A stretch of 64,000 nt of DNA from the NCBI RefSeq assembly GCF_054482595.1, contig NZ_CM137008.1, one strand, 5' to 3'. Position 1 is the first letter of the stretch; every line of letters starts with the position of its first letter. Below, piece by piece: positions 1 to 15,658 of the stretch. The translations under genes were made by a program, and so were the position numbers. Under the pieces are notes generated by a model. That model did no database searches, had not been told where the DNA came from, and saw only the letters and a list, made by a program, of their open reading frames with translations.

Positions 1-431
1 AACTGGCTCGTAAAGAAGATATGCAACTGAGTGCTCATATTAACCCAGAGACATTTGACGTTGAGTTAATTGATGAGAAGGGATCTGTCATTAATCGTAA
101 GTTACTATCTGCCGGTGAAAAGCAGATTTATGCCATTGCTATTCTTGAGGCGCTAGCAAAAACTTCTGGTCGTGATTTGCCGGTGATTATTGATACGCCA
201 TTAGGACGTCTGGATTCACAACATCGGGATAAACTAATTAACCATTATTTCCCATTTGCCAGCCATCAAGTGGTGCTATTGTCTACCGATACGGAAGTGG
301 ATGAACGTTATTTTGTTGACCAATTACGTGATGATATTTCTCATGCTTACGAGATAGTATTTAACACGCATACTAAATCATCAGCGTTGAAGCCCGGTTA
401 TTTCTGGGAATTAACTAAGGAGGCTATCTGA
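1..431 (+). CDS. dndD: DNA phosphorothioation protein DndD, C-terminal part (gene starts upstream of window)
   Basis: Frame is open from position 1; translation contains SMC/ABC-type signature LSAGEKQ followed by D-loop-like IIDTPLGRLD, as remembered for DndD C-termini. Stop TGA at 429-431 overlaps the dndE ATG (TGATG). Confidence 0.75.
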   Translation, partial: LARKEDMQLSAHINPETFDVELIDEKGSVINRKLLSAGEKQIYAIAILEALAKTSGRDLPVIIDTPLGRLDSQHRDKLINHYFPFASHQVVLLSTDTEVDERYFVDQLRDDISHAYEIVFNTHTKSSALKPGYFWELTKEAI

Positions 432-787
432 TGCTCCCGAATCGAATGGTGCTGAATCGTCAGACTGAAGAGCAGCTTAAAAGATTGAAAGGGTATACAG
501 GGATCACACCTAATGTCGCTGCCCGATTGGCATTTTTCCGCTCGGTGGAGAGTGAGTTTCGCTATTCATCAGAACGGGATAATCGGAAACTAGATGGTTC
601 GCTGGTGTTGGATAAGATTACGTGGCTGGGGGAGACATTACAGACTACGGAATTGGTATTGAAGATGCTTTATCCGCAGTTAGCTCAGAAGGATATGGTT
701 AAAGCATGGGCTGCGCATGTGGAGGATGGGATTGCGGCGTTAAGGAATCATAAGAGTCTATTAAACTTTATTAAATCAATAGATTAA
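431..787 (+). CDS. dndE: DNA phosphorothioation protein DndE (118 aa)
   Basis: Small protein directly coupled to dndD; motif GITPNVAARLAFFRS resembles the DndE family; size and position are typical for dndE as last gene of dndBCDE. Confidence 0.7.
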   Translation: MLPNRMVLNRQTEEQLKRLKGYTGITPNVAARLAFFRSVESEFRYSSERDNRKLDGSLVLDKITWLGETLQTTELVLKMLYPQLAQKDMVKAWAAHVEDGIAALRNHKSLLNFIKSID

Positions 788-795
788 GAATTTTT

Positions 796-826
796 AGGCC
801 ATCCAAATTAACAATATGGATGGCCT
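796..826. terminator. Perfect 10-bp inverted repeat (aggccatcca / tggatggcct, 11-nt loop) between convergent dndE and DGQHR genes; possible bidirectional terminator or RNA-stabilising hairpin
   Basis: Inverted repeat read directly from sequence; no clean U-run on either side, so terminator function is uncertain. Confidence 0.35.
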
Positions 827-845
827 GAACAAAATTTAGTCAATT

Positions 846-2006
846 TTAAAAATCTGTTTTGACATTTTCGTTTAAATAATCATATATTTTTCGCTGACCC
901 ACAGTTGTTGATGTATACTCTGTATTTTTTGTAAACTCCTCAGGATTCACAGTTTTCAATGCAGAGCACAGCTTTTCAATATTTTCTTTGTTAATTTTAG
1001 GCATGTCCATCAATTTTTTACGTAGAAACTGAAATAATGCAGAAATACCGACAGATCTAACTAACACTGTGCCTTTCTCAATACATACATTAGCCCAAAA
1101 ATGATCTTTTATCGCTGAAAAATAAATTTTCAATATTTGCTCTATCGCCTTATCATTGCCTTTTATATAAAACCATCGCAATGGGCTTTTATCCTTGCTG
1201 TTTTTATTATCAAGCCTGCCCCTTCCTTTTTCTTTTTCATCCGAATCAATTGCATTGATGGTATATCTATCAGCACGAGGGTTTTTAGATATTAGTGATA
1301 ATACACCATCAATAAATACAGACGATGATATAGACCAGTCATTTTCAGTAATTTCATTCAATACTCTATTTTTTAATCGTCTGTAGAAAGGATATTCATC
1401 TGTTTTATTAAATTTCTCACTAAAATATACAGCAAGCAAATCAGGAGGCCAATACTCTCTGGATATATCATCAAGAGAGTATCCAAAGAGTCTATATGCT
1501 AAACTTTTAGGAACTTTTTGTTGGTTAAAATTAATTGTTGAAAATATAGTTGCTTGATTGGATGGTGGTAATGAGTTATAAATTGAACAAGGTAATTGAA
1601 TATCTTTATTCTTAGCATACTTAAATCCTAATAATCTGTGCTGTCCATCGATAATAGAACATAATCTTAGATTTATATTCGGTATTATTATCTTATATAA
1701 TCAATTCTCACTTTTTTTAAACTCCCATTTGTCATCTTCCTTTGCAGGTGTACCATCTTCATTATGATTGACAGAGAGTATGATTGAGTTTGGAAATGCA
1801 GCCTCATCGGAGTCTATGAATTTTGCTATGTCTAAGGCTCTTGGCATAGACTCTTTCCTCTGCACACCTGATATTTCCCCATCATCCATTTCCGCCTGAT
1901 TCACATAAATACATTTCAATAAATCTTCGGCAGACATAACCGTCTGAAAGAATTCGCCGTATGGTTGGGTGACCTTAATTGCATGGATCTCAATAGAATT
2001 AGACAT
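846..2006 (-). pseudogene. DndB-like DGQHR-domain protein interrupted by an in-frame TGA (codon 102, plus-strand 1701-1703); possibly pseudogene, readthrough gene or sequencing error
   Basis: Minus-strand frame is continuous from ATG at 2006 to stop at 846-848 except for one TGA; N-terminal part has DndB-like AIKVTQPYGEFFQTVM and GVQR motifs, and the region just after the stop reads CSIIDGQHRLLGF (DGQHR signature). Very AT-rich. Confidence 0.65.
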
Positions 2007-2525
2007 TTATAGCCCCTCACCTGGCTCATCATTAGAACTCATATTCCTTAATTCATCAGACACTAATGAATCTGGAGTTACAGGGATTTTAAAATCAGGC
2101 TTAACAACGGTAATGGAAAACCATAATATTATAGTTATAATAAGTGATGAAATTAACATGAAATTGACGTCATTTTTTAATCCAAAAAATAAAAAAACAA
2201 ATGATATGAACCATAAAAATATTGAACAAGATATTCTAACTTGTTTACGGTGCCTTTCAGATAAAGAAATAGGATTTTCGTTCTCGTCATCTCTGGATAA
2301 ACACTCCGCGGCTAATACGCCCAATGTGGTAATAATAAATGAAAAAATAGAAAAACCCAACTGCGTATTATCTTTTAAAAATAATGGGCCAATCCATATT
2401 CCGCAGGTTGATACAAATAATGTCACCAAAGATATAAAAATAAATTTTGGCTGAATAATTCTTGGATATAATCCTAAGATATCTTTCCACAAGTTCACCC
2501 AATGTATCATATCATTTCTCGACAT
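2007..2525 (-). CDS. Small hydrophobic protein with about 4 predicted transmembrane helices (172 aa), function unknown
   Basis: ORF with four long hydrophobic stretches; its TAA stop (2007-2009) directly abuts the ATG of the DGQHR gene (translational coupling); AGGG Shine-Dalgarno-like sequence upstream; 37 bp downstream of the dptH stop on the same strand. Confidence 0.5.
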   Translation of the reverse strand: MSRNDMIHWVNLWKDILGLYPRIIQPKFIFISLVTLFVSTCGIWIGPLFLKDNTQLGFSIFSFIITTLGVLAAECLSRDDENENPISLSERHRKQVRISCSIFLWFISFVFLFFGLKNDVNFMLISSLIITIILWFSITVVKPDFKIPVTPDSLVSDELRNMSSNDEPGEGL

Positions 2526-2562
2526 GCTTTTTACCCTAACCTTGTACTATCTACAAAAATAA

Positions 2563-5500
2563 TCAAAAAACAAGCTCCCAAAACGCTCTATCTCGCATCT
2601 TGCTAACCCGCTTATCCCCATCAACATACAGACTGAAATGTTTTTCAAGCTGCCGAATCTGCCCCATTAACGACTCCTGTTCGCCCTTATCATCCACGTT
2701 GAATACAGCCTTGATATCCGCATTTTTAATTTCGGACACACGATGAATAACCCAGGTTAGAATATATGAAGCGTAATTGTTCTCTCCAGTTTTGAAGTGG
2801 GTAATTTCCTGCGTTGACAGGATCGCTCCAACACCATATTCACGACCTTCCTTAAGGATCTTCCTCAGACTGGAAAAGTCCTGGCGCATAAAGTTATCTG
2901 CCTCATCCACCAGAATCATCTTGGTGAGCTGACGATAATCCCCCTGAATCACTGGCTTGCCGCGTTTTTGCATTTGTGCATAAAACAGATCCAGGGTTAG
3001 CGCAACCACCAGGTTTTGAATCTCTGATGAGTAGCCAGCCAATTCGATAACTGTGACACCATCCACCAGATCATACAGACTCGTCATTTTCTCTGGGTCT
3101 GTTTCAAATATCTGAAACCCAGCTAAGTTATAAAGCGCGGCGTACAATGAGTCTTCTTCTACTTTTTCCTGAGCCAGATATCGCTGCCACACATCTTCTA
3201 TGGTCGGTGCAACACGGTTCCAGGTTGAGCGATCATGAGGCACTATTCCTGCTAATTCATAGCACTCCATGATTAGCGTAACCAGTTTCATACGCTGTTT
3301 CACACCCAGGTTATAGGCTTTCCCCATTGTTTCAGAAAATGCGATTGCGGTATGTCTGGGTAACATGGGCATATCACCAAACAGTGACAAAGGGTTATAA
3401 GGTAGTAACGATAATTGATATTTCTTACCGCCAGTAGCCTTCAGAAAAGCCTCGTCCACATAGTCAGATTTATAATCAAAGATCAGTAAACCAATCGATT
3501 TTCCATCAACGTTACAGGATTGGTTACGCATTAATTGTGTCACCAGCGATTTGGTAAATTGCGTTTTCCCGGTCCCCATCGTACCGATGATGCCTGTGTT
3601 GGTATTCATAAACTTCGTGGTGTTGGTCGGTTCCCAGAATAACGGGGTTTGCCGTGTAGCGTCATGACCAAATAATACTTGTAAGGGTACAGTGCTGACC
3701 TCTGGTGTCGGCTTTGGAATATCAGGTCGTGTGTCTGGCGGTGTCGTTACCTGCACTCCCGATGCTGATGGAGATGGGTGCTCATCACTCTCTGGCTTCA
3801 GACGGTATTTATCTGGTACCCGGTAGCGTTCAGCCAATGGCAATTTACCTTCACGGGTAGTGATTAACGAGGATAGTAATGAATAAGGAATTTCGATCTG
3901 TAAGATATTCGCTGTCGTCTCTTTATAGGAGAGATCGAAGCAAGATCCGCTGTCTACATGTGCAACAACAAAGCCATTAGCATAGTCTTTTAACTCACCC
4001 AACTGATAGTCACCGGTCAACCACCATTCGCGGCGATCCAACAGGGGAGCCAGCTTATCACTGTCCAGCACACCGTACAGCTGAAGTTTCTCTACCTGCA
4101 TCAGCACCTGTCGAATAAAGAGCGCGCGATAAAGTTGCGATGCCAGTGTATGCGGCTCCAGAATATCCTGCTGTAAATAACGTTTAAGCTCAGCAGCCTG
4201 CTGGCCCGCATAGTTGTAATCTGGTCGAGCGCCGGTTTTGACTTCCAGCGGCAGTAAATAGAGACGGTTTTCTTTAAAACCAACAAAGAGCACATCATCA
4301 GAGATTGCGCCTTTACGGTACCCCTGTAGATTTCTTGATAAATCGCTTTCCTTCATCTTTAGCCCGACGTTACCAGATACGCGAATCATTTCGGCTACAG
4401 ATAGCGGTACCCAGCAGATATCAGACTCACTCAGCATGGACTGTACAAATTTATACGCGCCAATGATGCCATATTTCTCTTTGCGCTCTTTTTCACTGGA
4501 GCGCAACATCTTCAGCAACCACTCACCGTTAAAAGCATTAAATTCGGCAAGTAGATGCTGGCTATCAACGGCAGATTGCCCGGACTGGCTTTCGGTCTGG
4601 AGCAGGCGGAGGAATAGATCGACCTGCTTCGTTACCGTCACTGCATCGTAGCCTGCACAACTAGTGTACTGATCGGAATAGTGGATCAGCACAACATCTT
4701 TCTGGCTAGTAAAGAAGTCAAGAGTAACTTTAGGGTCAATAATGGTGGTCCAGAGTGCACTGTTGTAAGAATAATTGAGTAGCTGTTTAAAATTGCCGCT
4801 TACGGCCAATCCAATCCCTTGTCCGTGGTATTGACTGTTGCTCTGACGCGCTGGCTGCCACAGGCAGCCCACTAACCGGGCAAGTCGTAGAGCGCAGTAA
4901 GATTCAGTATCAACATTCCGCAGGCCAAACGCGGTAAAGTAAGCATCCCCCTGTGTTTCAGCTCCTTCTCCGGAAATCAGCCCATGACACAGTACACCGC
5001 TGGCAGCATCCTCAATGCGGATCTGGCGGCAATCCACCGGAGCTGTATTGGTGAAAAACGCCAAATGTGCATAGGCCAATTTGTCGCTTTCTGACGGCAG
5101 GACAAATTTGCTGAACGTTAACCGACTGCGTAACAGGTCAATCAGCATATCGGCCTCAGCTCGCCACGCACCGCGGTTCAGGTCAAGGTCGTTTTTAAGC
5201 TGTTCATAGCTGCCACTCTCGGCAAAGCGATCAAACATATTTGGCAGCAGGCGTTCATCGTAGCAATTTACATGCACCGAAATAGCATGCTCTTTTTCCT
5301 GCTTAAAATATTCCACTAACCCCAGAAACAGTTCTTTCGCTGTTCCCTGATTAATAGCATTAATAATCAATGCATTGTTTCCGGGACTCTGAAATAGCCG
5401 GGCGTAGGCTTCGGTAAATTCATTGAGCTTGTCTTTTACCAAACGTTTTACGTAATCGTGGCTCACCTGGCGCTGGGGAACGACATCGATCCAGAAGCGA

Positions 5501-7638
5501 TTTTCTTCCACCGGCTGCAACTGTGCGTATTCGTGTTCACTGTGGTAAACGAATGGCATCAAGCCGGACACCACCAGACGATCAAGCGTAATGGTCGGTA
5601 GTGTGGCAAATGACGCTGAGTCGTATTGTTCCTGCTCTGCGCAGATAGTTTGTACCAGTTGTAAATGGTAGGCCAACACTAGGGGATGCAACGGGGAGAG
5701 ACGTTCATGACTGTCGACATTACAAATACCCAGATGCAGCAGGCGCTTTTCCTGCGCTGTTAACGCTCTGCTCAACTCGATTTGTTGAAGCGCCTGTTCA
5801 AAGGTCGTCACTATATGGCTTACCAGCGCGCAGTATTCTGCTGACCACGATACTAGGCTAGGTAAAGTACCGCAGCGCTGGTAGTAGAGGAATAATTGGT
5901 CGTAGGCGTTATAGAGATCGGGGTGGATGGCAACGAGTTCATCCAGCGCAAACGCGCTATCGTCATCTCCTGTCCCCAAAAGACGTTGATCAACTAATGA
6001 GGCTTCCAGCGCCAGTAACTGCTGGCGAACACCGACAACCTTGTGTTCGGTATTATCAAGAATGATACGACCCTTCAATCGGTTCCAGGACGCATTCCCG
6101 TCTTCTTTGAACAGTTTATTGAAACGACTCTGGTCAAAAAGTAGCGGTAAGGTTAACCCTTCTTCGGCTCCCGGCCCTTCGATATTGAATGCCAGACAAG
6201 AATCACCTGAAACAAGCTTAAATTGGATCAGATCGCTTTGATTTGCCAGTGTTTCAAAATTCACCAATGCATAATGCTGGCAGTCAATATCACCATTTTC
6301 TTCATCCAGTATACAGACTTGGCTACCCGACTCAGCGATTCGTAGTTCGTTGTCTTCGCGTTGGAGTGTGATTTGTGGTTTACCTGGCTCGATACGGAAA
6401 CAATGCTGAATATCGTCTAGCCAGAATTGTCCTTGTCTGACCAGTAACAGGCGGAACTTGTACTCTTCGGCTGAATTATTGCGATTAGTCAGTTCGAGGC
6501 TAAAGAAGCAGGGATTCCCATCGAAAGGAACCGACGCCATAATACGGGAGCTTTTACCCCCTGCACGACTAATTCGCCAGAAACGCTCTTTTTTTAACTG
6601 ACGATGATGCGCAATTTTTATCTGGTTATCCTGAAGATCGTTGCCCTGAAAGCAAAACTCCAGCTCAGTTTGCGATTGTTCGGGTGGTACCTGTACCAGT
6701 AGGCTGATATCGCGCTTGCCTGCTTTACTTGCGCTTTTCGCCCGTTGCCAAATCACGCCATTTTCGACCGTGATATCATCCAGTACCAGTTTTTGTTCGC
6801 GGTTCTGTTCTTTTTCGTTTAGATAAACAGCGAAATCAAGCTCGCGCCAGTCGTCTTTATCATTGAAATGTTCCTGAATAAATTTGGCGCTGAATTCAGT
6901 TAATACGTTCTCCAGTTGCCCACTGTAGCGTTCAACGCTGTCCTCGATTTGACGAAATAACTTCCTGTTTTCATTCAGTCGGGTATGGAGCTGTTTCTGG
7001 CTAAAATTCAGTAGTTCATCATCTTTAAACAGCGATAGCTCGGAGAAATCCAGATTGCCGTCATCCAGCAGGCGATACAACGACGAGAAGCCAAATACGG
7101 TCGCACCTTCATCCAGTACCGTTGTTCGTTGATCCTTTAATAAGCAACGCGACAACTCTGAACGGTTGTTGTCCGTCGTGATCAACTTTTCCAATTCATG
7201 ACTGAAGGTTTCGGGGTGCCAGATAGCTCCCGGTGCCGCGACGTCTTTTGTGCTGTTAATCAGGGTGTCCAGCATGCTGTTATGAATAATCAGCAGTGCA
7301 GTTTTGGCAAACACCCCGCTGCGGCCAGCAACTTCATCGCGTAAATGGGATATGTAGTTTTCCGTGAATGCTGGCGCTGCGGCTCCGTGCAGCACCGGAA
7401 TAAGCTGAATACCATTACAGGAGAGACAGGCAAGGCGCTGCTCTGGCGCAATTTCCAGATGATTGTCACCTGCCAGGTCAACAAAAGCCTGCCAGAGTTG
7501 TAGAGCATTGTCAGGGTCAGGAGATTTAAACTGGTAACGCTCACCAGGTTGAATAATGCCACTAACCCATTCAATAAAGGTTTCCGCCAGATAGGTTTCA
7601 TACTGTTTTACGGACATACACGGCGTCTCCACTGTCAC
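2563..7638 (-). CDS. dptH: DptH/DndH-like large ATPase/helicase-type protein of the phosphorothioate-dependent restriction module (1691 aa)
   Basis: 5076-bp ORF with Walker A (GIIGTMGTGKTQF) and Walker B-like (ILVDEADNF) motifs; third gene of a three-gene operon adjacent to dndDE; gene sizes match what I recall for dptFGH of Salmonella/E. coli dnd islands. Start may be the downstream ATG at 7617. Confidence 0.75.
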   Translation of the reverse strand: MTVETPCMSVKQYETYLAETFIEWVSGIIQPGERYQFKSPDPDNALQLWQAFVDLAGDNHLEIAPEQRLACLSCNGIQLIPVLHGAAAPAFTENYISHLRDEVAGRSGVFAKTALLIIHNSMLDTLINSTKDVAAPGAIWHPETFSHELEKLITTDNNRSELSRCLLKDQRTTVLDEGATVFGFSSLYRLLDDGNLDFSELSLFKDDELLNFSQKQLHTRLNENRKLFRQIEDSVERYSGQLENVLTEFSAKFIQEHFNDKDDWRELDFAVYLNEKEQNREQKLVLDDITVENGVIWQRAKSASKAGKRDISLLVQVPPEQSQTELEFCFQGNDLQDNQIKIAHHRQLKKERFWRISRAGGKSSRIMASVPFDGNPCFFSLELTNRNNSAEEYKFRLLLVRQGQFWLDDIQHCFRIEPGKPQITLQREDNELRIAESGSQVCILDEENGDIDCQHYALVNFETLANQSDLIQFKLVSGDSCLAFNIEGPGAEEGLTLPLLFDQSRFNKLFKEDGNASWNRLKGRIILDNTEHKVVGVRQQLLALEASLVDQRLLGTGDDDSAFALDELVAIHPDLYNAYDQLFLYYQRCGTLPSLVSWSAEYCALVSHIVTTFEQALQQIELSRALTAQEKRLLHLGICNVDSHERLSPLHPLVLAYHLQLVQTICAEQEQYDSASFATLPTITLDRLVVSGLMPFVYHSEHEYAQLQPVEENRFWIDVVPQRQVSHDYVKRLVKDKLNEFTEAYARLFQSPGNNALIINAINQGTAKELFLGLVEYFKQEKEHAISVHVNCYDERLLPNMFDRFAESGSYEQLKNDLDLNRGAWRAEADMLIDLLRSRLTFSKFVLPSESDKLAYAHLAFFTNTAPVDCRQIRIEDAASGVLCHGLISGEGAETQGDAYFTAFGLRNVDTESYCALRLARLVGCLWQPARQSNSQYHGQGIGLAVSGNFKQLLNYSYNSALWTTIIDPKVTLDFFTSQKDVVLIHYSDQYTSCAGYDAVTVTKQVDLFLRLLQTESQSGQSAVDSQHLLAEFNAFNGEWLLKMLRSSEKERKEKYGIIGAYKFVQSMLSESDICWVPLSVAEMIRVSGNVGLKMKESDLSRNLQGYRKGAISDDVLFVGFKENRLYLLPLEVKTGARPDYNYAGQQAAELKRYLQQDILEPHTLASQLYRALFIRQVLMQVEKLQLYGVLDSDKLAPLLDRREWWLTGDYQLGELKDYANGFVVAHVDSGSCFDLSYKETTANILQIEIPYSLLSSLITTREGKLPLAERYRVPDKYRLKPESDEHPSPSASGVQVTTPPDTRPDIPKPTPEVSTVPLQVLFGHDATRQTPLFWEPTNTTKFMNTNTGIIGTMGTGKTQFTKSLVTQLMRNQSCNVDGKSIGLLIFDYKSDYVDEAFLKATGGKKYQLSLLPYNPLSLFGDMPMLPRHTAIAFSETMGKAYNLGVKQRMKLVTLIMECYELAGIVPHDRSTWNRVAPTIEDVWQRYLAQEKVEEDSLYAALYNLAGFQIFETDPEKMTSLYDLVDGVTVIELAGYSSEIQNLVVALTLDLFYAQMQKRGKPVIQGDYRQLTKMILVDEADNFMRQDFSSLRKILKEGREYGVGAILSTQEITHFKTGENNYASYILTWVIHRVSEIKNADIKAVFNVDDKGEQESLMGQIRQLEKHFSLYVDGDKRVSKMRDRAFWELVF

Positions 7639-8923
7639 TCATTCGCTCCACATTTCCCATACGTTCATAAAACGCTACCAGCGTTTGTGCCGACTGGTTA
7701 TCCAGATAAAATCCGCGCTGTTCAAAGCCGCGCAGCAACTCATGCAGGCGTAGTTTGTCATTTTTACCCACAGTGAGATTGGTCAGCAGCAGCAGACGAT
7801 CCTGATTCAGTACCAGTACTTTTCCCGCCCGACCACGTACCTGAATGAAATCGGTGCAGATCTGGGTTTCAAGCTCGTTGATGTATTTCCGGTTAACTGT
7901 CGCACGATCAGATTTCTTATCCTGAAACTGTTCAACAGCAACGGTTAATAATTGTTTAAAAGCTTCTTCCAGCGTAACGGCTTGCGTATACTTCGATGCC
8001 GAAAGCTCGCGTTTTTCGATAAACTCCTGCAAATAATTATTGAGATCTTGCAGTAATTGAGATGAGTTATCAGAAAAATTTAAGCAATCCTGATAGACCT
8101 GCCAGAGTGGACGCTTCTTATCTCCTTTTATTTGTAGAACTTCCAGCGCGGAGAGTATTGGGAAAAGTTTTTCACTTTGACGAGCGAACCACTTATAACC
8201 AAAGCGTTTTATTTGATCCCGTTCAGAACTGGCTTTTTCAGTGTCGAGAATAAAGAAAAGCGACTTACTTTGTGGCTCGCCGTCCTGCCAGTTGTCCAGA
8301 TTGAGCGCTAGCTGGGCACACCAGCTAAAGGCATATAAACGCAGAGTATTAGTCAGTTCTTGTAACAAATATTGAGGGTGTTCTGCCAAAAACGCCAGAT
8401 CAGACTGAAAACAAGTCACCAGATAGGGAAGGTAGGGTTGTTCTTCAGAGAATGGGCCTTTTCCCAATAACTTTATTTTTTCATTGAGCTTATTTAGCAT
8501 TTGCTGCTCAATGAAGTTCAGCTTATCCTGGATAGGATATTCCAAGCTGAAATCTCCCATTAGATTAGCAAACAGAGTGCCAAGGCGTTTATCGGCCATT
8601 GAAGCGCCACTTATTTTTTCGCCATCAAACTGAGCATGAAATAGTAAAAAAAGCGGAGATACACGAAAGATATCTTCACTGGAAAAATACATCCGTTCCA
8701 GTACAGTCCAGAATGCTGGTTCATCAAGCAATTCTTGCAAATGAGCCTTGCAATCATCGCGAAATTGACTGGGAGTATAGGCATCAATTTTACGCTTCAG
8801 GGCGTAACTAAGCACCAATCCGGTGACAAATTGCCAGTTAATATCATTGTTTTTGTTACGTATCGGCAGATAACTATCCAGTTGATTATTACCTACTTTT
8901 AACGTCGTTGCGATAGGGTACAT
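7598..8923 (-). CDS. dptG: DptG/DndG-like protein (441 aa)
   Basis: 1326-bp ORF between dptF and dptH on the same strand, 4-nt gap from dptF stop; size and context match dptG. Confidence 0.7.
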   Translation of the reverse strand: MYPIATTLKVGNNQLDSYLPIRNKNNDINWQFVTGLVLSYALKRKIDAYTPSQFRDDCKAHLQELLDEPAFWTVLERMYFSSEDIFRVSPLFLLFHAQFDGEKISGASMADKRLGTLFANLMGDFSLEYPIQDKLNFIEQQMLNKLNEKIKLLGKGPFSEEQPYLPYLVTCFQSDLAFLAEHPQYLLQELTNTLRLYAFSWCAQLALNLDNWQDGEPQSKSLFFILDTEKASSERDQIKRFGYKWFARQSEKLFPILSALEVLQIKGDKKRPLWQVYQDCLNFSDNSSQLLQDLNNYLQEFIEKRELSASKYTQAVTLEEAFKQLLTVAVEQFQDKKSDRATVNRKYINELETQICTDFIQVRGRAGKVLVLNQDRLLLLTNLTVGKNDKLRLHELLRGFEQRGFYLDNQSAQTLVAFYERMGNVERMSDSGDAVYVRKTV

Positions 8924-8927
8924 TCCA

Positions 8928-10577
8928 CTAACCCTCCATACCGCTAATGGTGATCATGTCGTCGTCCGCTTTAGCGCGATAAACTCGCCGCCCACCAGCA
9001 TAAAACTTGATTTCGCTGCTGGATTTGGCCTGTTCAGTAATCAAATCAACGATTTCGTCCAGTAGAACAATGGCATTTTTATCGTATTTATTGGGGCGAT
9101 AGCCATTGTTTAATTTGTTCAAAAGTTCAAATAAATTAAGTCCGATACGAACTGGTAACAGAGAGTTTTGCCCAACTTTTAAATGCACGTCGAAGCCAGT
9201 AGGGTGGGCCGTATTTTTATTGCGGATGGCCTCCCAGTCAGGTTTCAATTCGACTGGCGCGGTTATTTTTACCCCACCATATTCACCTAAAAAGAACTCT
9301 TCTTTTTGCATACTCAATTCCGGCGCTTTGCGGTTTGCATAGCGCTGAATACCAGCAATAAGTTCGGATGTATAAAACCGGTTCAGTGCTTTTTTCTGCT
9401 CTGAGTCAGCGATGTAATTTTTGTGCAGATGCCAGATTTCTGAATAATGCTCAAATAAAGATTCATTGAAGAATACGGAAAATTTCTGATGATAATTATT
9501 CCCCAGAGATTCATCCTGCAGCAACCAGAAGAGCCGAATTAATGAAGCCGCATCACCCGGATTAACGCACTGGCGATCAAATCTAATGTGTAATGGCGCG
9601 AGTGCAGCTAAAAAATCATCCAGTTCAGGGTCAACCAGGCCCAATTCGTAGCGCAAAATAAACTGATCGATTTCATAGGTGTGCAGCCTAGCAGGATCAA
9701 AATCAGAAACTTTTTTAATCAGGTCGTTTTCTGCCCCAGTGAAAAGATTATCAAATAAATACCCCGGCCCCATAAGCAAATGATGCAGAAAATCCAATAG
9801 AGTTCGGGTTGTCACAAACTGATCTTTAATCAGGCGGGCCTTAAAGAGCTGAGTGATGAGAACATCCTGAACACCCGGCAGACAAAGTAATTTATAGTTA
9901 GCAACTTCTTTCAGCTCAGGGTTAACGGTCTCATCATGTCGAAAAATAAACTGAAACAAATTACTATCATCATTACGGGTTAAATTATCCAGTAATGTTT
10001 TAATAAACGATGAATACTGTTTTTTTTCATTAAACTGGAATTTAGGGTAATGCTCAAAGTCAAAAAAAGAACAATGCCCACTGCGGTATGGGCGGCTTTC
10101 TTCCTGATCTGCTGACAAGAAAGAATCGATCGCAGTGCGGATCGCCAGATGGCATTCAGCACCTTCTCTGGCAAAATTGGCGAGCATCCCGGTATTGATG
10201 CCTATAAGCAAAGGAGATGAGTATTGGTGATGATTGCTAAATAAATCATTTAAAGCATCAATAGCTGATTGCCGGGGAGCAAAGCTGTGTGTTGCATCCA
10301 GATGAAAACTAAAGCGCTGCTGATAACGAGGGTTTGACTTACAACGGGTCAAAATTTCGGACTTTCCATCACCACTACTGCCACACAAAAAGATGATTTC
10401 ACCGGGCTTAGCAACATCCAGATAACGTTGCAGCTCAGTTTCAATTTCTTGTTTAACAAAGAGTTGTTCTTTTAACTGATCGAACTCATCCTTTTGACGA
10501 TGCGTTACCGTGGTTACGGAAAACGAAGATGACTTCGCAAGTACACCCAACGCTTTACGTAATGTGATTGCGCTCAT
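8928..10577 (-). CDS. dptF: DptF/DndF-like P-loop ATPase (549 aa)
   Basis: 1650-bp ORF with Walker A-like motif FLCGSSGDGKSEI; first gene of the operon, preceded by an AT-rich 5' region. Confidence 0.7.
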   Translation of the reverse strand: MSAITLRKALGVLAKSSSFSVTTVTHRQKDEFDQLKEQLFVKQEIETELQRYLDVAKPGEIIFLCGSSGDGKSEILTRCKSNPRYQQRFSFHLDATHSFAPRQSAIDALNDLFSNHHQYSSPLLIGINTGMLANFAREGAECHLAIRTAIDSFLSADQEESRPYRSGHCSFFDFEHYPKFQFNEKKQYSSFIKTLLDNLTRNDDSNLFQFIFRHDETVNPELKEVANYKLLCLPGVQDVLITQLFKARLIKDQFVTTRTLLDFLHHLLMGPGYLFDNLFTGAENDLIKKVSDFDPARLHTYEIDQFILRYELGLVDPELDDFLAALAPLHIRFDRQCVNPGDAASLIRLFWLLQDESLGNNYHQKFSVFFNESLFEHYSEIWHLHKNYIADSEQKKALNRFYTSELIAGIQRYANRKAPELSMQKEEFFLGEYGGVKITAPVELKPDWEAIRNKNTAHPTGFDVHLKVGQNSLLPVRIGLNLFELLNKLNNGYRPNKYDKNAIVLLDEIVDLITEQAKSSSEIKFYAGGRRVYRAKADDDMITISGMEG

Positions 10578-10794: not shown

Positions 10795-10975
10795 TAAATA
10801 TTACCCCCGATTGATTTTCGCATAGTCAAACAGCGTAATCGATCTCTCCCTATTCGCATCCAGAAAATCAGCCCACCATACTGCAAATCAGCTCGCGCTC
10901 ATCCAGATGTTCTGCCTTATGGATATACGCCCCCTTACCGATGTGACTCATCTGACGTTCAGCCGCTTTATCTCA
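10795..10975 (-). pseudogene. Decayed 3' fragment of a P4-type integrase gene (remnant of a second int copy)
   Basis: About 180 bp with roughly 75-80 percent identity (by eye) to the 3' end of the intact integrase gene at about 13930-14110 (for example gcatccagaaaatc...ttatggatatacgc...ctcatctgacgttca shared); same orientation; 5' two-thirds of the gene absent. Confidence 0.6.
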
Positions 10976-11072: not shown

Positions 11073-11103
11073 GATCGATTTTATCGATCGATTCGATCGA
11101 AAA
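11073..11103 (+). promoter_or_regulatory. Cluster of three GATC sites inside tandem tcgatcgat-like repeats, about 90-115 bp upstream of the outer-membrane protein gene
   Basis: GATC at 11073-11076, 11086-11089 and 11095-11098, each inside CGATCG; read directly from sequence. Regulatory role is hypothetical. Confidence 0.3.
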
Positions 11104-11189
11104 CATTCCTTTTACCTTATCTTTTTCATGGTCTTAGAATGAGCAACCCCATTTATCGTTCGGGGAAAGTGATAGCGGAGATGATTGAA

Positions 11190-11930
11190 ATGAATAAGGT
11201 TATTGCGGTTTCAGCGCTTGCCATGGCAGGCATGTTTTCGACCCAGGCTCTGGCTGATGAAAGCAAAACAGGCTTTTATGTGACCGGTAAAGCAGGTGCT
11301 TCTGTTATGTCACTTGCAGACCAGCGTTTCCTGTCGGGGGATGGAGAGGAAACATCAAAATATAAAGGCGGTGATGGCCATGATACGGTATTCAGTGGCG
11401 GTATCGCGGCCGGTTATGATTTTTACCCGCAGTTCAGTATTCCGGTTCGTACGGAACTGGAGTTTTACGCTCGTGGAAAAGCTGATTCGAAGTATAACGT
11501 AGATAAAGACAGCTGGTCAGGCGGTTACTGGCGTGATGACCTGAAGAATGAGGTGTCAGTCAACACACTGATGCTGAATGCGTACTATGACTTCCGGAAT
11601 GACAGTGCATTCACACCATGGGTATCTGCAGGGATTGGCTACGCCAGAATTCACCAGAAAACAACCGGTATCAGTACCTGGGATTATGGGTACGGAAGCA
11701 GTGGTCGCGAATCGTTGTCACGTTCAGGCTCTGCTGACAACTTCGCATGGAGCCTTGGCGCGGGTGTCCGCTATGACGTAACCCCGGATATCGCTCTGGA
11801 CCTCAGCTATCGCTATCTTGATGCAGGTGATAGCAGTGTGAGTTACAAGGACGAGTGGGGCGATAAATATAAGTCAGAAGTTGATGTTAAAAGTCATGAC
11901 ATCCTGCTTGGTGTGACTTATAACTTCTGA
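11190..11930 (+). CDS. Outer-membrane beta-barrel protein, Hek/Tia/Hra-like adhesin/invasin family suspected (about 246 aa precursor)
   Basis: Start chosen at internal ATG 11190 preceded by GGAG at -12; typical signal peptide MNKVIAVSALAMAGMFSTQALA then DESK; alternating aromatic/glycine-rich beta-strand pattern; C-terminal YNF with terminal Phe typical of OMP beta-barrels. Family name is from memory only. Confidence 0.65.
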   Translation: MNKVIAVSALAMAGMFSTQALADESKTGFYVTGKAGASVMSLADQRFLSGDGEETSKYKGGDGHDTVFSGGIAAGYDFYPQFSIPVRTELEFYARGKADSKYNVDKDSWSGGYWRDDLKNEVSVNTLMLNAYYDFRNDSAFTPWVSAGIGYARIHQKTTGISTWDYGYGSSGRESLSRSGSADNFAWSLGAGVRYDVTPDIALDLSYRYLDAGDSSVSYKDEWGDKYKSEVDVKSHDILLGVTYNF

Positions 11931-12103
11931 CGACACTGCTCCTGAACGATAATACGTATATTTAGCAATTAAGATAATTGCGTATCTTCTGCAATTAAAC
12001 AGAAATACCCTGCAGTCTATTACTGCAGGGTTATCTGTTTCACAGATAATTTCTGATTTTTATTATCCTGTTCTCTTCATCATAATGTTGTCGATATACT
12101 CCG

Positions 12104-13603
12104 ATGAATATCAGAAAACTGTTTTGTCCGGGAAACACACCCCGGATTTTATTGTTTTTATTCTTTTTTGTTGTTTCTGCAATAACCACAATTGCATGCG
12201 GATACACTGAGAAGAATGCCACAGGAAATGTGCTGCTTCTGTTTCTCCTTCTTCTCCTTGCACACAGAAATACCCTCACATCCATTACAGCGCTGTTATT
12301 TCTGTTCTGTTGTGCACTGTATGCGCCTGCGGGTATGACGTACGGTAAAATCAACAACAGTTTTATTGTCGCGTTGCTGCAGACCACGGCTGATGAGGCT
12401 GCAGAGTTTACCGGGATGATTCCTGTTTATCATTTTCTGGTCAGTGCCGCGATTCTGGTATTCATGGTGATTTTCTGGCGGACACACCACCGCGGTCACC
12501 GTAACTGGCTGGCACTGCTGCTATTCGTATTATGCTCTGTAAACAGCTGGCCGTTGCGGATGGTTAAAGGAACTGTTGTGGGGACAACTGACACATTGCG
12601 TGAAATGCAGCGTTATAAACAACTGAGTCAGCACGGGGCTGATAACTGGAAAATCCTGCCGGGTGTGCCGTTGTATGACACGATTGTTATCGTTACTGGT
12701 GAGAGTGTGCGCAGGGATTATATGTCGGTATATGGCTATCCCGTGCCAACCACGCCGTGGCTGAATACTGCTCCCGGTTTATTTATTGACGGCTATACAT
12801 CGACAGCAGCCAGTACCGTACCTTCCCTGAGCCGGACACTGATTTATGACTATGAGCAGAACCCTGACTCCGGCAACAACGTGGTGGCGCTGGCAGCAAA
12901 AGCAGGATACAGCACATGGTGGATATCCAATCAGGGAAAACTGGGAGAGCATGACACACGCATCTCTGTTATTGCTTCTGATGCGGAGCATACCGTTTTC
13001 CTCAAGAAAGGCAGCTTCGCTTCCCGTAAAACGGATGACATGTTGTTGTTACAGGAAACAGAACGTGCGCTGGCGGATAAATCCTCGCCGAAGGTGATTT
13101 TCCTGCACATGATTGGCTCTCATCCGAATCCGTGTGACCGACTTAACTCCTGGCCGAATTATTACCTGGAGCAGTATCCCCGAAAGATTGCCTGTTACCT
13201 CGCCAGCATCAGTAAACTGGATAACTTTCTCGGTCAGCTTGATGGTATCCTTCGCCGGCATTCCCGTCACTTTGCAATGCTTTACTTTTCTGACCATGGG
13301 CTGTCGGTCAGCGACAGTGCTAATCCTGTTCATCATGATGGTCATGTGCAGGGGGGCTACAGCGTTCCCCTGATTATTACCGCCAGTGACATCACGTCTC
13401 ATCAGTCCGTCAGCAGGAAAATCAGTGCCCGTAATTTCGCAGGCATTTTTCAGTGGCTGACCGGTATTCGTACCGAAAATATAACGCCATTCAATCCGCT
13501 GACAGACGAAGATAATGAACCCGTTATGGTTTTTAACGGAGAGAAAAATGTGCCGGCAGACAGTCTGAAACCGCAGCCACTTATTCTTCCGGACCACAGG
13601 TAA
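12104..13603 (+). CDS. Inner-membrane sulfatase-family / phosphoethanolamine transferase-like protein (YhbX/YjgX-like, 499 aa)
   Basis: N-terminal hydrophobic helices followed by a periplasmic domain with motifs IVTGESVRRDY, HMIGSHPNP and LYFSDHG, typical of the alkaline-phosphatase-superfamily PEA transferases; position next to the leuX integrase matches the K-12 yjgX locus. Confidence 0.6.
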   Translation: MNIRKLFCPGNTPRILLFLFFFVVSAITTIACGYTEKNATGNVLLLFLLLLLAHRNTLTSITALLFLFCCALYAPAGMTYGKINNSFIVALLQTTADEAAEFTGMIPVYHFLVSAAILVFMVIFWRTHHRGHRNWLALLLFVLCSVNSWPLRMVKGTVVGTTDTLREMQRYKQLSQHGADNWKILPGVPLYDTIVIVTGESVRRDYMSVYGYPVPTTPWLNTAPGLFIDGYTSTAASTVPSLSRTLIYDYEQNPDSGNNVVALAAKAGYSTWWISNQGKLGEHDTRISVIASDAEHTVFLKKGSFASRKTDDMLLLQETERALADKSSPKVIFLHMIGSHPNPCDRLNSWPNYYLEQYPRKIACYLASISKLDNFLGQLDGILRRHSRHFAMLYFSDHGLSVSDSANPVHHDGHVQGGYSVPLIITASDITSHQSVSRKISARNFAGIFQWLTGIRTENITPFNPLTDEDNEPVMVFNGEKNVPADSLKPQPLILPDHR

Positions 13604-13926
13604 TCATATATGGCAAACTGTAATACAGTCTCTTGTACTGAAAAGGATTCTGTATAGAATAGAACCTGTATTCATATCAGCACAAGGGACCACCAAATCC
13701 CGGCAACATTCCTTACGTCAGTTATCCCGCATCACCCTGTGGGTGCGGGATTTTTTATGATGTTTCTTTTTATTGAATATATATAAATAACGAATAACTG
13801 CGGATTCTGATAATCCACCTGCAGGGAGCAATCCGGTAAACATTTAATACATCAGTTAATATCGTTTTGCCTTTTTAACAAAGAAAATATTCATGGAGTA
13901 AGTTCCCGGGCATTTGCCCGGGATGA

Positions 13927-15192
13927 TTACTGTTTTAATGGATTATTAATCTTTGCATATTCAAATGGACTGATAAATTTTTCTCTGTTTGCATCCAGAA
14001 AATCGGCCCACCATTGTAGCATCAAGCGGCGTTCTTCCAGATGCTCTGCTTTATGGATATACGCGGCCCTCACTGAATTTCGCTCCATGTGGCTCATCTG
14101 ACGTTCAACAGCATCACGAGACCACAAACCTGATTCGACCAATGAACTACAGGCCATTGTTCGAAAGCCATGACCACAAACCTCTACTTTTGTATCATAC
14201 CCCATGACCCGTAACGCACTATTTACCGTATTCTCACTCATGGGTTTGTGCGAATCGTGATCACCAATAAATATCAAGTCATGGGCCCCACAAAACTGTT
14301 TTATCTGCTTTAAAATTGCAAGAGCTTGCGTTGAAAGAGGCACTAGATGCGTTGTACGCATTTTTGAGCCTCTATGGGAATGTTTCACTCCAGGAATAGG
14401 CTCCCGCTCCGGTGGGATAGTCCATATAGACGCTTCGAAATCGATCTCTGACCAACGAGCAAAACGCAGCTCACTGGACCGAATAAAGATCAGCAAAGAG
14501 AGTTCTGTCGCCCATCGGGTTAGCGGCCTACCAGTATAGCTATCTATTTTTGTAAGCAACTCAGGGATGCGCTTTAATTCAAGCGCGGGACGATGTTGTC
14601 GATTACAGGAAGCAACCGCCCCAGCCATCTCTTGTGCCGGGTTATAATCAATTAACCCACTTTGCACTGCATAGCGCATGATGGCTGTAGTGCGCTGCTG
14701 AAGACGAGCGGCCACTTCAAGACGTCCAGACATTTCTACGGCCTTAATGGGTGCTAATAAATCTCGAGTTTTTAACTCAGCGATATTACGTTCACCAAGC
14801 GCTGCAAAAAGATTATCTTCCAGACTTTTTAGCACACGATGGGCGTGATCTTCAGACCACTTTTTATTGGTGCCATGCCACTCAATCGCGACTTCTTTAA
14901 AGGTTCGTGCTTTACTCTGTTCAACCTTATCATTTTTCTTTTTGTCTCCCGGATCGACGCCATTCGCAAGCAGCTTACGCGCCTCGTCACGACGTACTCT
15001 GGCATCCGCTAGTGTGATTTCAGGATAAACCCCAAGTGCCAGCATTTTTTGCTTTCCCTCATAACGGTACTGCAAACGCCAGTACTTAGAACCATTTGGA
15101 TGGACAAGCAGATGCATACCGCCACCATCAGTCAGCTTATATTGCTTATCCGTTGGCTTGGCTGCTCTGACTTTGATATCTGTTAATGCCAT
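13927..15192 (-). CDS. intB: P4-type tyrosine recombinase/integrase (IntB-like, 421 aa)
   Basis: Translation MALTDIKVRAAKPTDKQYKLTDGGGMHLLVHPNGSKYWRLQYRY... is a typical P4-family integrase N-terminus, with C-terminal catalytic region motifs (HGFR, Y near the C-terminus); start is adjacent to the 3' end of tRNA-Leu. Confidence 0.85.
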   Translation of the reverse strand: MALTDIKVRAAKPTDKQYKLTDGGGMHLLVHPNGSKYWRLQYRYEGKQKMLALGVYPEITLADARVRRDEARKLLANGVDPGDKKKNDKVEQSKARTFKEVAIEWHGTNKKWSEDHAHRVLKSLEDNLFAALGERNIAELKTRDLLAPIKAVEMSGRLEVAARLQQRTTAIMRYAVQSGLIDYNPAQEMAGAVASCNRQHRPALELKRIPELLTKIDSYTGRPLTRWATELSLLIFIRSSELRFARWSEIDFEASIWTIPPEREPIPGVKHSHRGSKMRTTHLVPLSTQALAILKQIKQFCGAHDLIFIGDHDSHKPMSENTVNSALRVMGYDTKVEVCGHGFRTMACSSLVESGLWSRDAVERQMSHMERNSVRAAYIHKAEHLEERRLMLQWWADFLDANREKFISPFEYAKINNPLKQ

Positions 15193-15207
15193 GCGTATTC
15201 CCTCCCT

Positions 15208-15265
15208 GTTGGTACAAGCATTATCGAACCGGAAATACCATCATCTGTACCAACATATGTTGGTA
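15208..15265 (-). promoter_or_regulatory. Repeated TGTTGGTA motif: perfect 18-bp palindrome taccaacatatgttggta (15248-15265) plus a third copy (15208-15217) upstream of int; candidate integrase/regulator binding sites in the int promoter-att region
   Basis: Motifs read directly from sequence between the int start codon (15192) and the leuX terminator. Confidence 0.3.
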
Positions 15266-15341
15266 GATGTACGTTGATATCGGTTGACCTTGAGAGAGTT
15301 AATATAGCGGGAAAGGTAGATAAACACTGGATTTCAGGCAT

Positions 15342-15366
15342 AAAAAAAGACCTCAGTTGAGGTCTA
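15342..15366 (-). terminator. Rho-independent terminator of leuX
   Basis: Hairpin agacctcagttgaggtct followed on the minus strand by a U-run (plus-strand A7 at 15342-15348), immediately 3' of the tRNA. Confidence 0.6.
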
Positions 15367-15378
15367 TTTACATACTTT

Positions 15379-15463
15379 TGGTGCCGAAGGCCGGACTCGA
15401 ACCGGCACGTATTTCTACGGTTGATTTTGAATCAACTGCGTCTACCGATTTCGCCACTTCGGC
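15379..15463 (-). tRNA. leuX: tRNA-Leu (anticodon CAA), leuX
   Basis: Minus-strand 85-nt sequence GCCGAAGTGGCGAAATCGGTAGACGCAGTTGATTCAAAATCAACCGTAGAAATACGTGCCGGTTCGAGTCCGGCCTTCGGCACCA, recognised as leuX with encoded CCA; P4-type integrase immediately 3'. Confidence 0.9.
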
Positions 15464-15658
15464 ACTGAAGAGGTATGCGGAAAACGTTGTGGATTATACC
15501 TGTCGCACGCCACCATGCAAGCGCCAGCTTGCTCGCACCTCGCTAAGTGCTGAAATTTTCAGCATTGCATACAGCGATGTGTAACCTTTGTCACACTCCA
15601 GGCACCCCGCCCTGCCATGCTCTACACTTCCCAGACAACACCAGAGAAGGACCAAAAA

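Follow-up and report, generated by a model that had tools for sequence, protein, structure and literature searches.

An intact hra1 adhesin gene as cargo of a recombining module on a leuX-linked island of Escherichia coli

Introduction

The genes hra1 and hek are long-known colonisation factors of Escherichia coli and routine markers in virulence-gene typing; published identities of hra1 are about 90% to hek and 67% to Tia (PMC7512150). EAEC 042 "actually has hra1", according to Malberg Tetzschner et al. (PMC7512150), and the gene appears in Table S1 of the 042 genome paper, under ROD48, as a "putative sulfatase and Tia homologue". Montero et al. 2017 cloned hra1 from EAEC 042, with the primers given in their supplement, and HB101 carrying 042 hra1 is their positive control for haemagglutination, autoaggregation, biofilm formation and epithelial adhesion (PMC5539235). 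Hra1 is an accessory colonisation factor whose activity can be masked in EAEC by the Aap coat; deletion of hra1 in 042 has an in vitro phenotype only when aap is also removed, and the 042 hra1 mutant is reduced in colonisation in vivo (PMC5863034).

A review of E. coli islands describes Hek as cargo of leuX islands in UPEC 536 (PAI II536), UTI89 and RS218, and places it on leuX, pheV and pheU islands. PMC2553418 gives Hek a predicted topology of eight strands and four external loops, with a second loop of about 30 residues that is absolutely required for haemagglutination and autoaggregation (citing Fagan 2008), and reports that Hek and Tia both bind heparan-sulphate proteoglycan.

Here we compare with these systems an open reading frame in a 64,000-nucleotide stretch of DNA, referred to throughout as the window. 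We conclude that it is very probably an intact copy of hra1, carried as adhesin cargo of a recombining module on a tRNA-linked island. Gene, family and kind of context are all already known, and the discovery value is small, hra1 and hek having so long been recognised as a colonisation factor; the practical value lies in annotation, for which hra1 is the correct label. This label marks the leuX island as an adhesin carrier beside a phosphorothioation defence cluster.

The window gene is hra1

11190..11930, + strand: hra1 coding sequence (heat-resistant agglutinin 1; Hra/Hek/Tia-family outer-membrane beta-barrel adhesin), 246 codons plus stop

The 246-aa outer-membrane protein (OMP) encoded on the pheV island of EAEC 042 is identical to the window protein at 244 of 246 residues (99% at the nucleotide level), and the two conservative substitutions, L189F and L239M, both lie inside strands predicted by the structural model. 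Similarity to the characterised members Hra1, Hek and Tia covers 100% of the length. Hek of the 536 and UTI89 leuX islands, which stand in here for RS218, shares 224 of 246 residues (91%), and a protein named "invasion outer membrane protein Tia" by NCBI (P0160, locus L017), which represents Tia of ETEC H10407, is 67% identical over its full length. These 91% and 67% values match the published relations of Hra1 to Hek and Tia, and therefore the gene is the known hra1 itself, beyond mere family resemblance. The first-pass annotation, made from the sequence alone, had proposed a resemblance to the Tia/Hek/Hra family, and in this it was correct.

The published cloning primers (PMC5539235) can also be placed on the window. 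The forward primer matches exactly at 11139-11160; the reverse primer as printed has no match in the window even with 3 mismatches allowed, and matches exactly at 11911-11930 once one extra printed A is dropped. The product predicted from both primers is 801 bp, which is the published size. Inspection of the 042 islands located the gene in ROD48 at pheV, together with an integrase, a phosphoethanolamine transferase and an integrase remnant; hra1 was not found at the leuX, pheU or selC islands of 042.

A search of a large protein collection gave over 100 relatives, nearly all of them E. coli proteins, and a Hes-like protein (P0004) is 89% identical to the window protein. Another entry, P0006 (258 aa, with an MSNPIYRSG extension and several local disagreements), has the appearance of the same gene with sequence errors. 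Near-identical proteins are variously named "outer membrane protein", "porin family protein", "adhesin/virulence factor Hek", "Tia invasion determinant" and "Adhesin", and a cluster only 66% identical to the window protein carries the "OmpW family" name; no NCBIfam model names Hra1 or Hek. At least 1000 public contigs encode the exact window protein, which has the UniRef name "Adhesin". Within a set of 5,426 complete E. coli genomes, alleles with at least 99% DNA identity account for 411 records, and some Hra-family member is present in 1,815 genomes, about a third. Isolates bearing hra1 include water, animal and commensal-type strains besides pathogens.

Start codon, signal peptide and mature protein

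11139..11189, + strand: in-frame upstream extension from the start of the historic 263-aa hra1 ORF (MSNPIYRSGKVIAEMIE); primer hra1_clon1 of PMC5539235 is exact at 11139-11160
11190..11255, + strand: Sec signal peptide of 22 residues (MNKVIAVSALAMAGMFSTQALA), read from the sequence, with a predicted cut before DESK

The 246-codon ORF is an in-frame shorter form of the 263-aa ORF starting at 11139. We favour 11190 as the likely true start because a Shine-Dalgarno sequence, GGAG at 11177-11180, lies 9 nt ahead of the ATG, and because similarity between the window and the 536 hek locus begins only from this GGAG. The RefSeq record of E. coli 55989 has the identical start and an identical CDS (WP_001477155), labelled "outer membrane protein". 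A start at 11139 was rejected: it is without a Shine-Dalgarno sequence, would precede the signal peptide and is absent from hek loci. The extension is probably 5′ UTR rather than coding sequence.

An A-x-A precedes the predicted cut (MNKVIAVSALAMAGMFSTQALA followed by DE), as in a standard Sec signal; this is the segment of hra1 most diverged from Hek. The mature protein has 224 aa, with a computed mass of 24.8 kDa and pI of 4.7, and its C-terminus reads ...GVTYNF, with Phe as the final residue. [quoted passage not shown] Both the cleavable signal and the "about 225 mature residues" of the first-pass annotation agree with these values.

Barrel fold and surface loops

11472..11561, + strand: approximate surface loop 2, residues 95-124 (RGKADSKYNVDKDSWSGGYWRDDLKNEVSV), at the tip of the b3-b4 hairpin; boundaries estimated from the model

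The Pfam profile OMP_b-brl (PF13505) matches Hra1 with E=5e-24 and 85.8 bits, against a gathering threshold of 28.7, and aligns residues 9-246 with profile positions 2-175 of 175. An AlphaFold model, computed with 44 family sequences as input, has a pLDDT of 87.9 and a pTM of 0.79 and contains eight long strands (29-50, 56-77, 86-109, 112-134, 141-165, 171-196, 201-220 and 226-245); its sole low-confidence part is residues 1-23, which fall outside the barrel with pLDDT values under 50. Four long hairpins are predicted at the surface, and the model agrees with the eight strands and four external loops predicted for Hek. An OMP beta-barrel ending in YNF had been proposed before this analysis, with topology prediction as a check, and profile, model and the ...GVTYNF terminus all bear it out.

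The estimated loop 2 (residues 95-124) is identical in the window protein, 042 Hra1, 536 Hek and UTI89 Hek. By these boundaries, which are estimated from the model and are not the published ones, the window protein would contain the loop 2 sequence that Hek requires for haemagglutination, autoaggregation, adherence and invasion.

In a Foldseek search of the PDB, the nearest solved folds were NspA, the OmpA transmembrane domain, Ail, OmpX and OprG/OmpW, and the sole solved sequence relative at E<0.001 was the Neisseria adhesin Opa60 (E=8e-5, two PDB sequence entries). No Hra-family structure was found in the PDB copy searched. Scores for the rickettsial Adr adhesins (NCBIfam NF052636) reach 97 bits against a cut-off of 210; the Adr adhesins are distant relatives with the same fold, and Hra1 is not a member of their family.

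The leuX island and the hra module

10810..10966, − strand: second P4-type integrase, 3′-end remnant, frameshifted; left edge of the hra module (tblastn, residues 361-416 of 421)
12007..12041, + strand: intrinsic-terminator-like hairpin (10-bp stem, 6 G-C pairs; hairpin 12007-12031) with T-rich tail, downstream of hra1
12104..13603, + strand: phosphoethanolamine-transferase-like gene, 499 aa, sulfatase fold (ORF; CptA/EptA matches below cut-off)
13927..15192, − strand: intact P4-type tyrosine integrase of the leuX island (ORF; NCBIfam PRK09692 integrase domain, 1.9e-77)
15379..15463, − strand: tRNA-Leu(CAA), leuX, the island attachment site (ARAGORN)

The genes lie in the order leuX, P4-type integrase, phosphoethanolamine transferase, hra1, integrase remnant and dpt/dnd cluster, and leuX is likewise upstream of the island in 55989, 536, UTI89 and K-12. 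Location on a tRNA-linked island, here with leuX and a P4-type integrase, is shared with the Hra family; in related loci the integrase carries the Pfam domains Arm-DNA-bind_3/Phage_integrase. The first-pass annotation had placed the gene on a tRNA-linked island next to an integrase: the tRNA linkage stands, with both leuX and an integrase present, but the transferase gene (12104-13603) intervenes between integrase and hra1. Its suggestion of virulence or colonisation cargo on such an island fits the Hra1 and Hek literature.

The integrase remnant, comprising the C-terminal 60 or so codons, sits between dptF and hra1. It is an annotated pseudogene in 55989 and is also found beside the OMP gene in 042 (at pheV), 97_3250 (at selC) and 21AR0807. 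Because it accompanies the OMP gene at these different sites, the remnant belongs to the hra module, and it suggests an old fusion of two islands. Downstream of hra1, the arms of the terminator hairpin are conserved in the 536 locus. The module occupies leuX in the window, 55989, 536 and UTI89, pheV in 042, and selC in 97_3250 and apparently in L013; strain 21AR0807 has the module with a tia-type allele.

The transferase gene adjoins a Hra-family OMP gene in 55989, 536, UTI89, 042, 97_3250 and 21AR0807, and is always directly downstream of it, whether the OMP allele is hra1, hek or tia-type; in related loci its product matches Pfam Sulfatase. It is frameshifted in 97_3250. Coordinates in other loci are as follows.

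L002, transferase at 7257-8756
L003, transferase at 5722-7221
L016, transferase at 6932-8433
L017, transferase at 6922-8421
L021, transferase at 3982-5481

K-12 MG1655 (L022, 4495500-4506500), compared with window region 12420-15500, keeps leuX and an intB pseudogene, but of the transferase gene it retains no more than the 3′ 1.2 kb, as the yjgX pseudogene (91.6% nucleotide identity). IS2 lies at the junction, and K-12 has lost the transferase 5′ end together with the entire hra1 gene. K-12 yjgX is thus a relic of the hra module.

The DNA phosphorothioation modification/restriction cluster occupies window positions 1-10577, with dptF at 8928-10577, dptG at 7598-8923 and dptH at 2563-7638; dndE and part of dndD lie at the start of the window, and the far end of the island lies beyond position 1. 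A second copy of the leuX 3′ end, searched for in the window in order to delimit the island, was not found. In 55989 the dndB region is annotated as a CDS for a DGQHR-domain protein plus a separate "DndB" CDS, and may represent a split gene. The window differs from 55989 (L001) by 11 single-base changes in the first 15.3 kb, and fixed-offset colinearity ends just before leuX, from about 15347, probably at an indel. The window strain is a close relative of 55989, not 55989 itself, with the same leuX island.

Locus L013 (GCA_054047385.1, CM132939.1) encodes the exact Hra1 protein, again accompanied by dptFGH and the transferase. Its module lies next to a different, 393-aa integrase, beside genes for an MFS transporter and a GH31 glycosidase that look like the yicJ/yicI pair flanking selC in 042 and 97_3250; if the L013 site is selC, two different tRNA sites can host the complete island.

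Allele exchange within the module

Amino acid identities to the window rank in opposite order for the transferase and the OMP in two loci.

tia-type locus (21AR0807) against the window: transferase 96.6%, OMP 67%
042 locus (hra1) against the window: transferase 92%, OMP 99%

These opposite ranks indicate that the two genes have been reshuffled by recombination. Across the compared loci the transferase keeps 92-98% amino acid identity, and the OMP varies from 67 to 99%. Binned nucleotide identity between the tia-type locus and the window is 79-87% upstream, 58-66% at 11300-11700 and 91-99% across the transferase. The alleles seen in this position are hra1, hek, an unnamed hek-like allele (97_3250) and the tia type, and by alignment the OMP gene appears to be a variable slot in an otherwise conserved module.

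A finer pattern is seen between hra1 and hek (L002/L003). Codons 1-70 (11190-11400) have 78% nucleotide identity and 18-19 amino acid changes, mostly in the signal peptide, whereas codons 71-246 (176 codons) are 98% identical, with 8 synonymous versus 3-4 non-synonymous changes; hra1 and hek thus look like mosaics of each other. We think it quite unlikely that the conserved unit is the whole module (remnant, GATC-rich region, OMP slot, terminator and short transferase), with the OMP gene as a hypervariable cassette that can be swapped. On that reading there may be a functional link between transferase and adhesin: modification of the LPS core or of the protein, for instance, could expose or mask the short adhesin.

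A three-GATC motif upstream of the OMP gene

11073..11099, + strand: conserved motif GATCGATTTTATCGATCGATTCGATCG, with three GATC (Dam) sites at 11073, 11086 and 11095

A 223-bp region separates the integrase remnant from hra1 and contains this motif and a weak promoter-like site, TTTACC-18-TAGAAT (9/12) at 11111-11140, which is no commoner than in shuffled sequence. The motif GATCGRTTTTRTCGATCGATTCGATCG lies upstream of the OMP gene in all 16 of the module-carrying loci that we fetched (16/16), hek and tia-type loci included; examples are given below. In 536, UTI89 and 97_3250, a 369-nt hypothetical ORF lies between the motif and the OMP gene.

L002, motif at 10401-10427
L003, motif at 8872-8898
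L016, motif at 5245-5271
L017, motif at 5885-5911
L021, motif at 6464-6490

An unusual density of Dam sites at 11073-11099 was considered and rejected, as the 64-kb window contains 9 GATC triplets that each span no more than 30 bp; it is only the conservation across alleles that makes the motif notable. Methylation-dependent, phase-variable expression is known for agn43 and pap, and by analogy the three Dam sites may confer it on the OMP gene.

Proposed function and alternative explanations

In the mechanism that we propose, hra1 is cargo of a small recombining module composed of integrase, phosphoethanolamine transferase, OMP gene and integrase remnant. The Hra1 precursor would be exported by Sec and its 22-residue signal peptide removed, and the aromatic signal at the C-terminus (...TYNF) would direct insertion of the 224-residue mature chain into the outer membrane, as in outer-membrane protein assembly generally. 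The mature chain is predicted to fold as an eight-stranded beta-barrel with four long hairpin loops facing the cell exterior. By analogy with the 042 allele and Hek, these loops, above all loop 2, would bind bacteria together in autoaggregation and biofilm and would agglutinate red cells after heating; they may also promote epithelial adherence through heparan-sulphate proteoglycans and, as for Hek, invasion. We infer that the window allele would have the same adhesive activities as 042 Hra1, since only two positions differ from the tested protein and both are within predicted strands.

Automatic database names ("porin family protein", "OmpW family outer membrane protein") would make the window protein not an adhesin but an OmpW-type porin or a general channel for small solutes, and there are weak Pfam matches to OmpW, Porin_2 and Toluene_X, with OprG and OmpW among the fold matches. 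However, its OmpW scores are below the cut-offs of both Pfam (PF03922, 20.8 vs 24 bits) and NCBIfam (equivalog NF008202, 18.4 vs 287), the "OmpW family" names belong to the separate 66%-identical cluster, and the protein is 99% identical to an experimentally shown agglutinin and adhesin, 042 Hra1. Eight-stranded barrels of this size are, moreover, closed rather than open pores, as in the structures of OmpA, OmpX and NspA. We give the porin explanation almost no chance of being right; a non-adhesin porin as best homologue, which the first-pass annotation had named as the result that would count against it, is not what we found. That annotation also offered a phage receptor as an alternative, and a main role in phage or colicin reception, for which the gene would be carried and varied, suits a surface-exposed OMP whose loop-coding DNA is hypervariable (hra1 and the tia type share 58-66% of nucleotides) within a module conserved at 92-99%, a pattern that fits phage pressure. 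Immune pressure on an adhesin predicts the same hypervariability, though, and no link of Hra-family proteins to phage or colicin adsorption was found in the sequence analyses or literature examined. Such a role would add to the adhesin activity already demonstrated and would not replace it; as the main role we consider it very improbable.

A different question is whether hra1 is intact but silent in the window strain, either untranscribed or masked by O-antigen, capsule or a dispersin-like coat, with no measurable role in colonisation. The upstream promoter-like match is weak (9/12) and no commoner than in shuffled sequence, hra1 is also found in water, animal and commensal-type isolates, the 042 deletion has no in vitro phenotype unless aap is removed (PMC5863034), and PagN is masked by LPS (PMC2553418); given such masking by Aap in EAEC or by LPS for PagN, hra1 may therefore give no in vitro phenotype. 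On the other hand, the gene has an intact ORF, Shine-Dalgarno sequence and terminator as well as an intact conserved region upstream, the allele is kept at ≥99% in hundreds of genomes, and the 042 hra1 mutant colonises less well in vivo. We regard silent cargo as unlikely; it concerns expression and not identity, and is compatible with our main explanation that the gene is an intact hra1.

Comparison with known relatives

NspA, Opa60, the OmpA transmembrane domain, Ail and OmpX have the same fold class as Hra1 but only 14-20% sequence identity to it, and their loops are much shorter. Ail and Opa are likewise adhesins that act through surface loops.

Closer to Hra1 are Hes (LEE-negative STEC), Hra2 (EAEC 60A) and PagN (Salmonella), which are Hra-family or Hra-like eight-stranded OMP adhesins. 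The N-terminus of the Hes-like P0004, MIEIKKVIV, matches the hes cloning primer. In the literature, Hes is 90% identical to Hra1 and is carried on the LAA island at pheV, unlike the leuX location in the window, and Hra2 is about 65% identical to Hes. PagN has only about 54% similarity to Hek, is sensitive to heat and shows no autoaggregation (PMC2553418). Tia (P0160/L017) shares with Hra1 the family, length, conserved barrel strands and conserved GATC motif, but loops 1-3 are largely different in sequence; PMC2553418 likewise describes Tia loop 2 as highly divergent from that of Hek.

The hek loci of 536 and UTI89 have the same leuX site and the same transferase-OMP pair as the window, and differ in an extra 3.5-kb AAA-domain gene after the integrase. 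The estimated loops 2 and 4 are identical between Hek and the window Hra1, whereas the signal peptide and first strand/loop 1 have diverged and loop 3 carries G167E. Hek is also known from NMEC RS218.

The 042 locus shares with the window the three-GATC upstream region, the downstream transferase, the upstream integrase remnant and the primer sites. Hra1 is also known from porcine ETEC O9:H10:K99. The 042 island is at pheV and the window island at leuX, and the neighbouring transferase of 042 is only 92% identical to that of the window; beyond the integrase remnant, the window has the dpt/dnd cluster whereas 042 has TerB/helicase genes.
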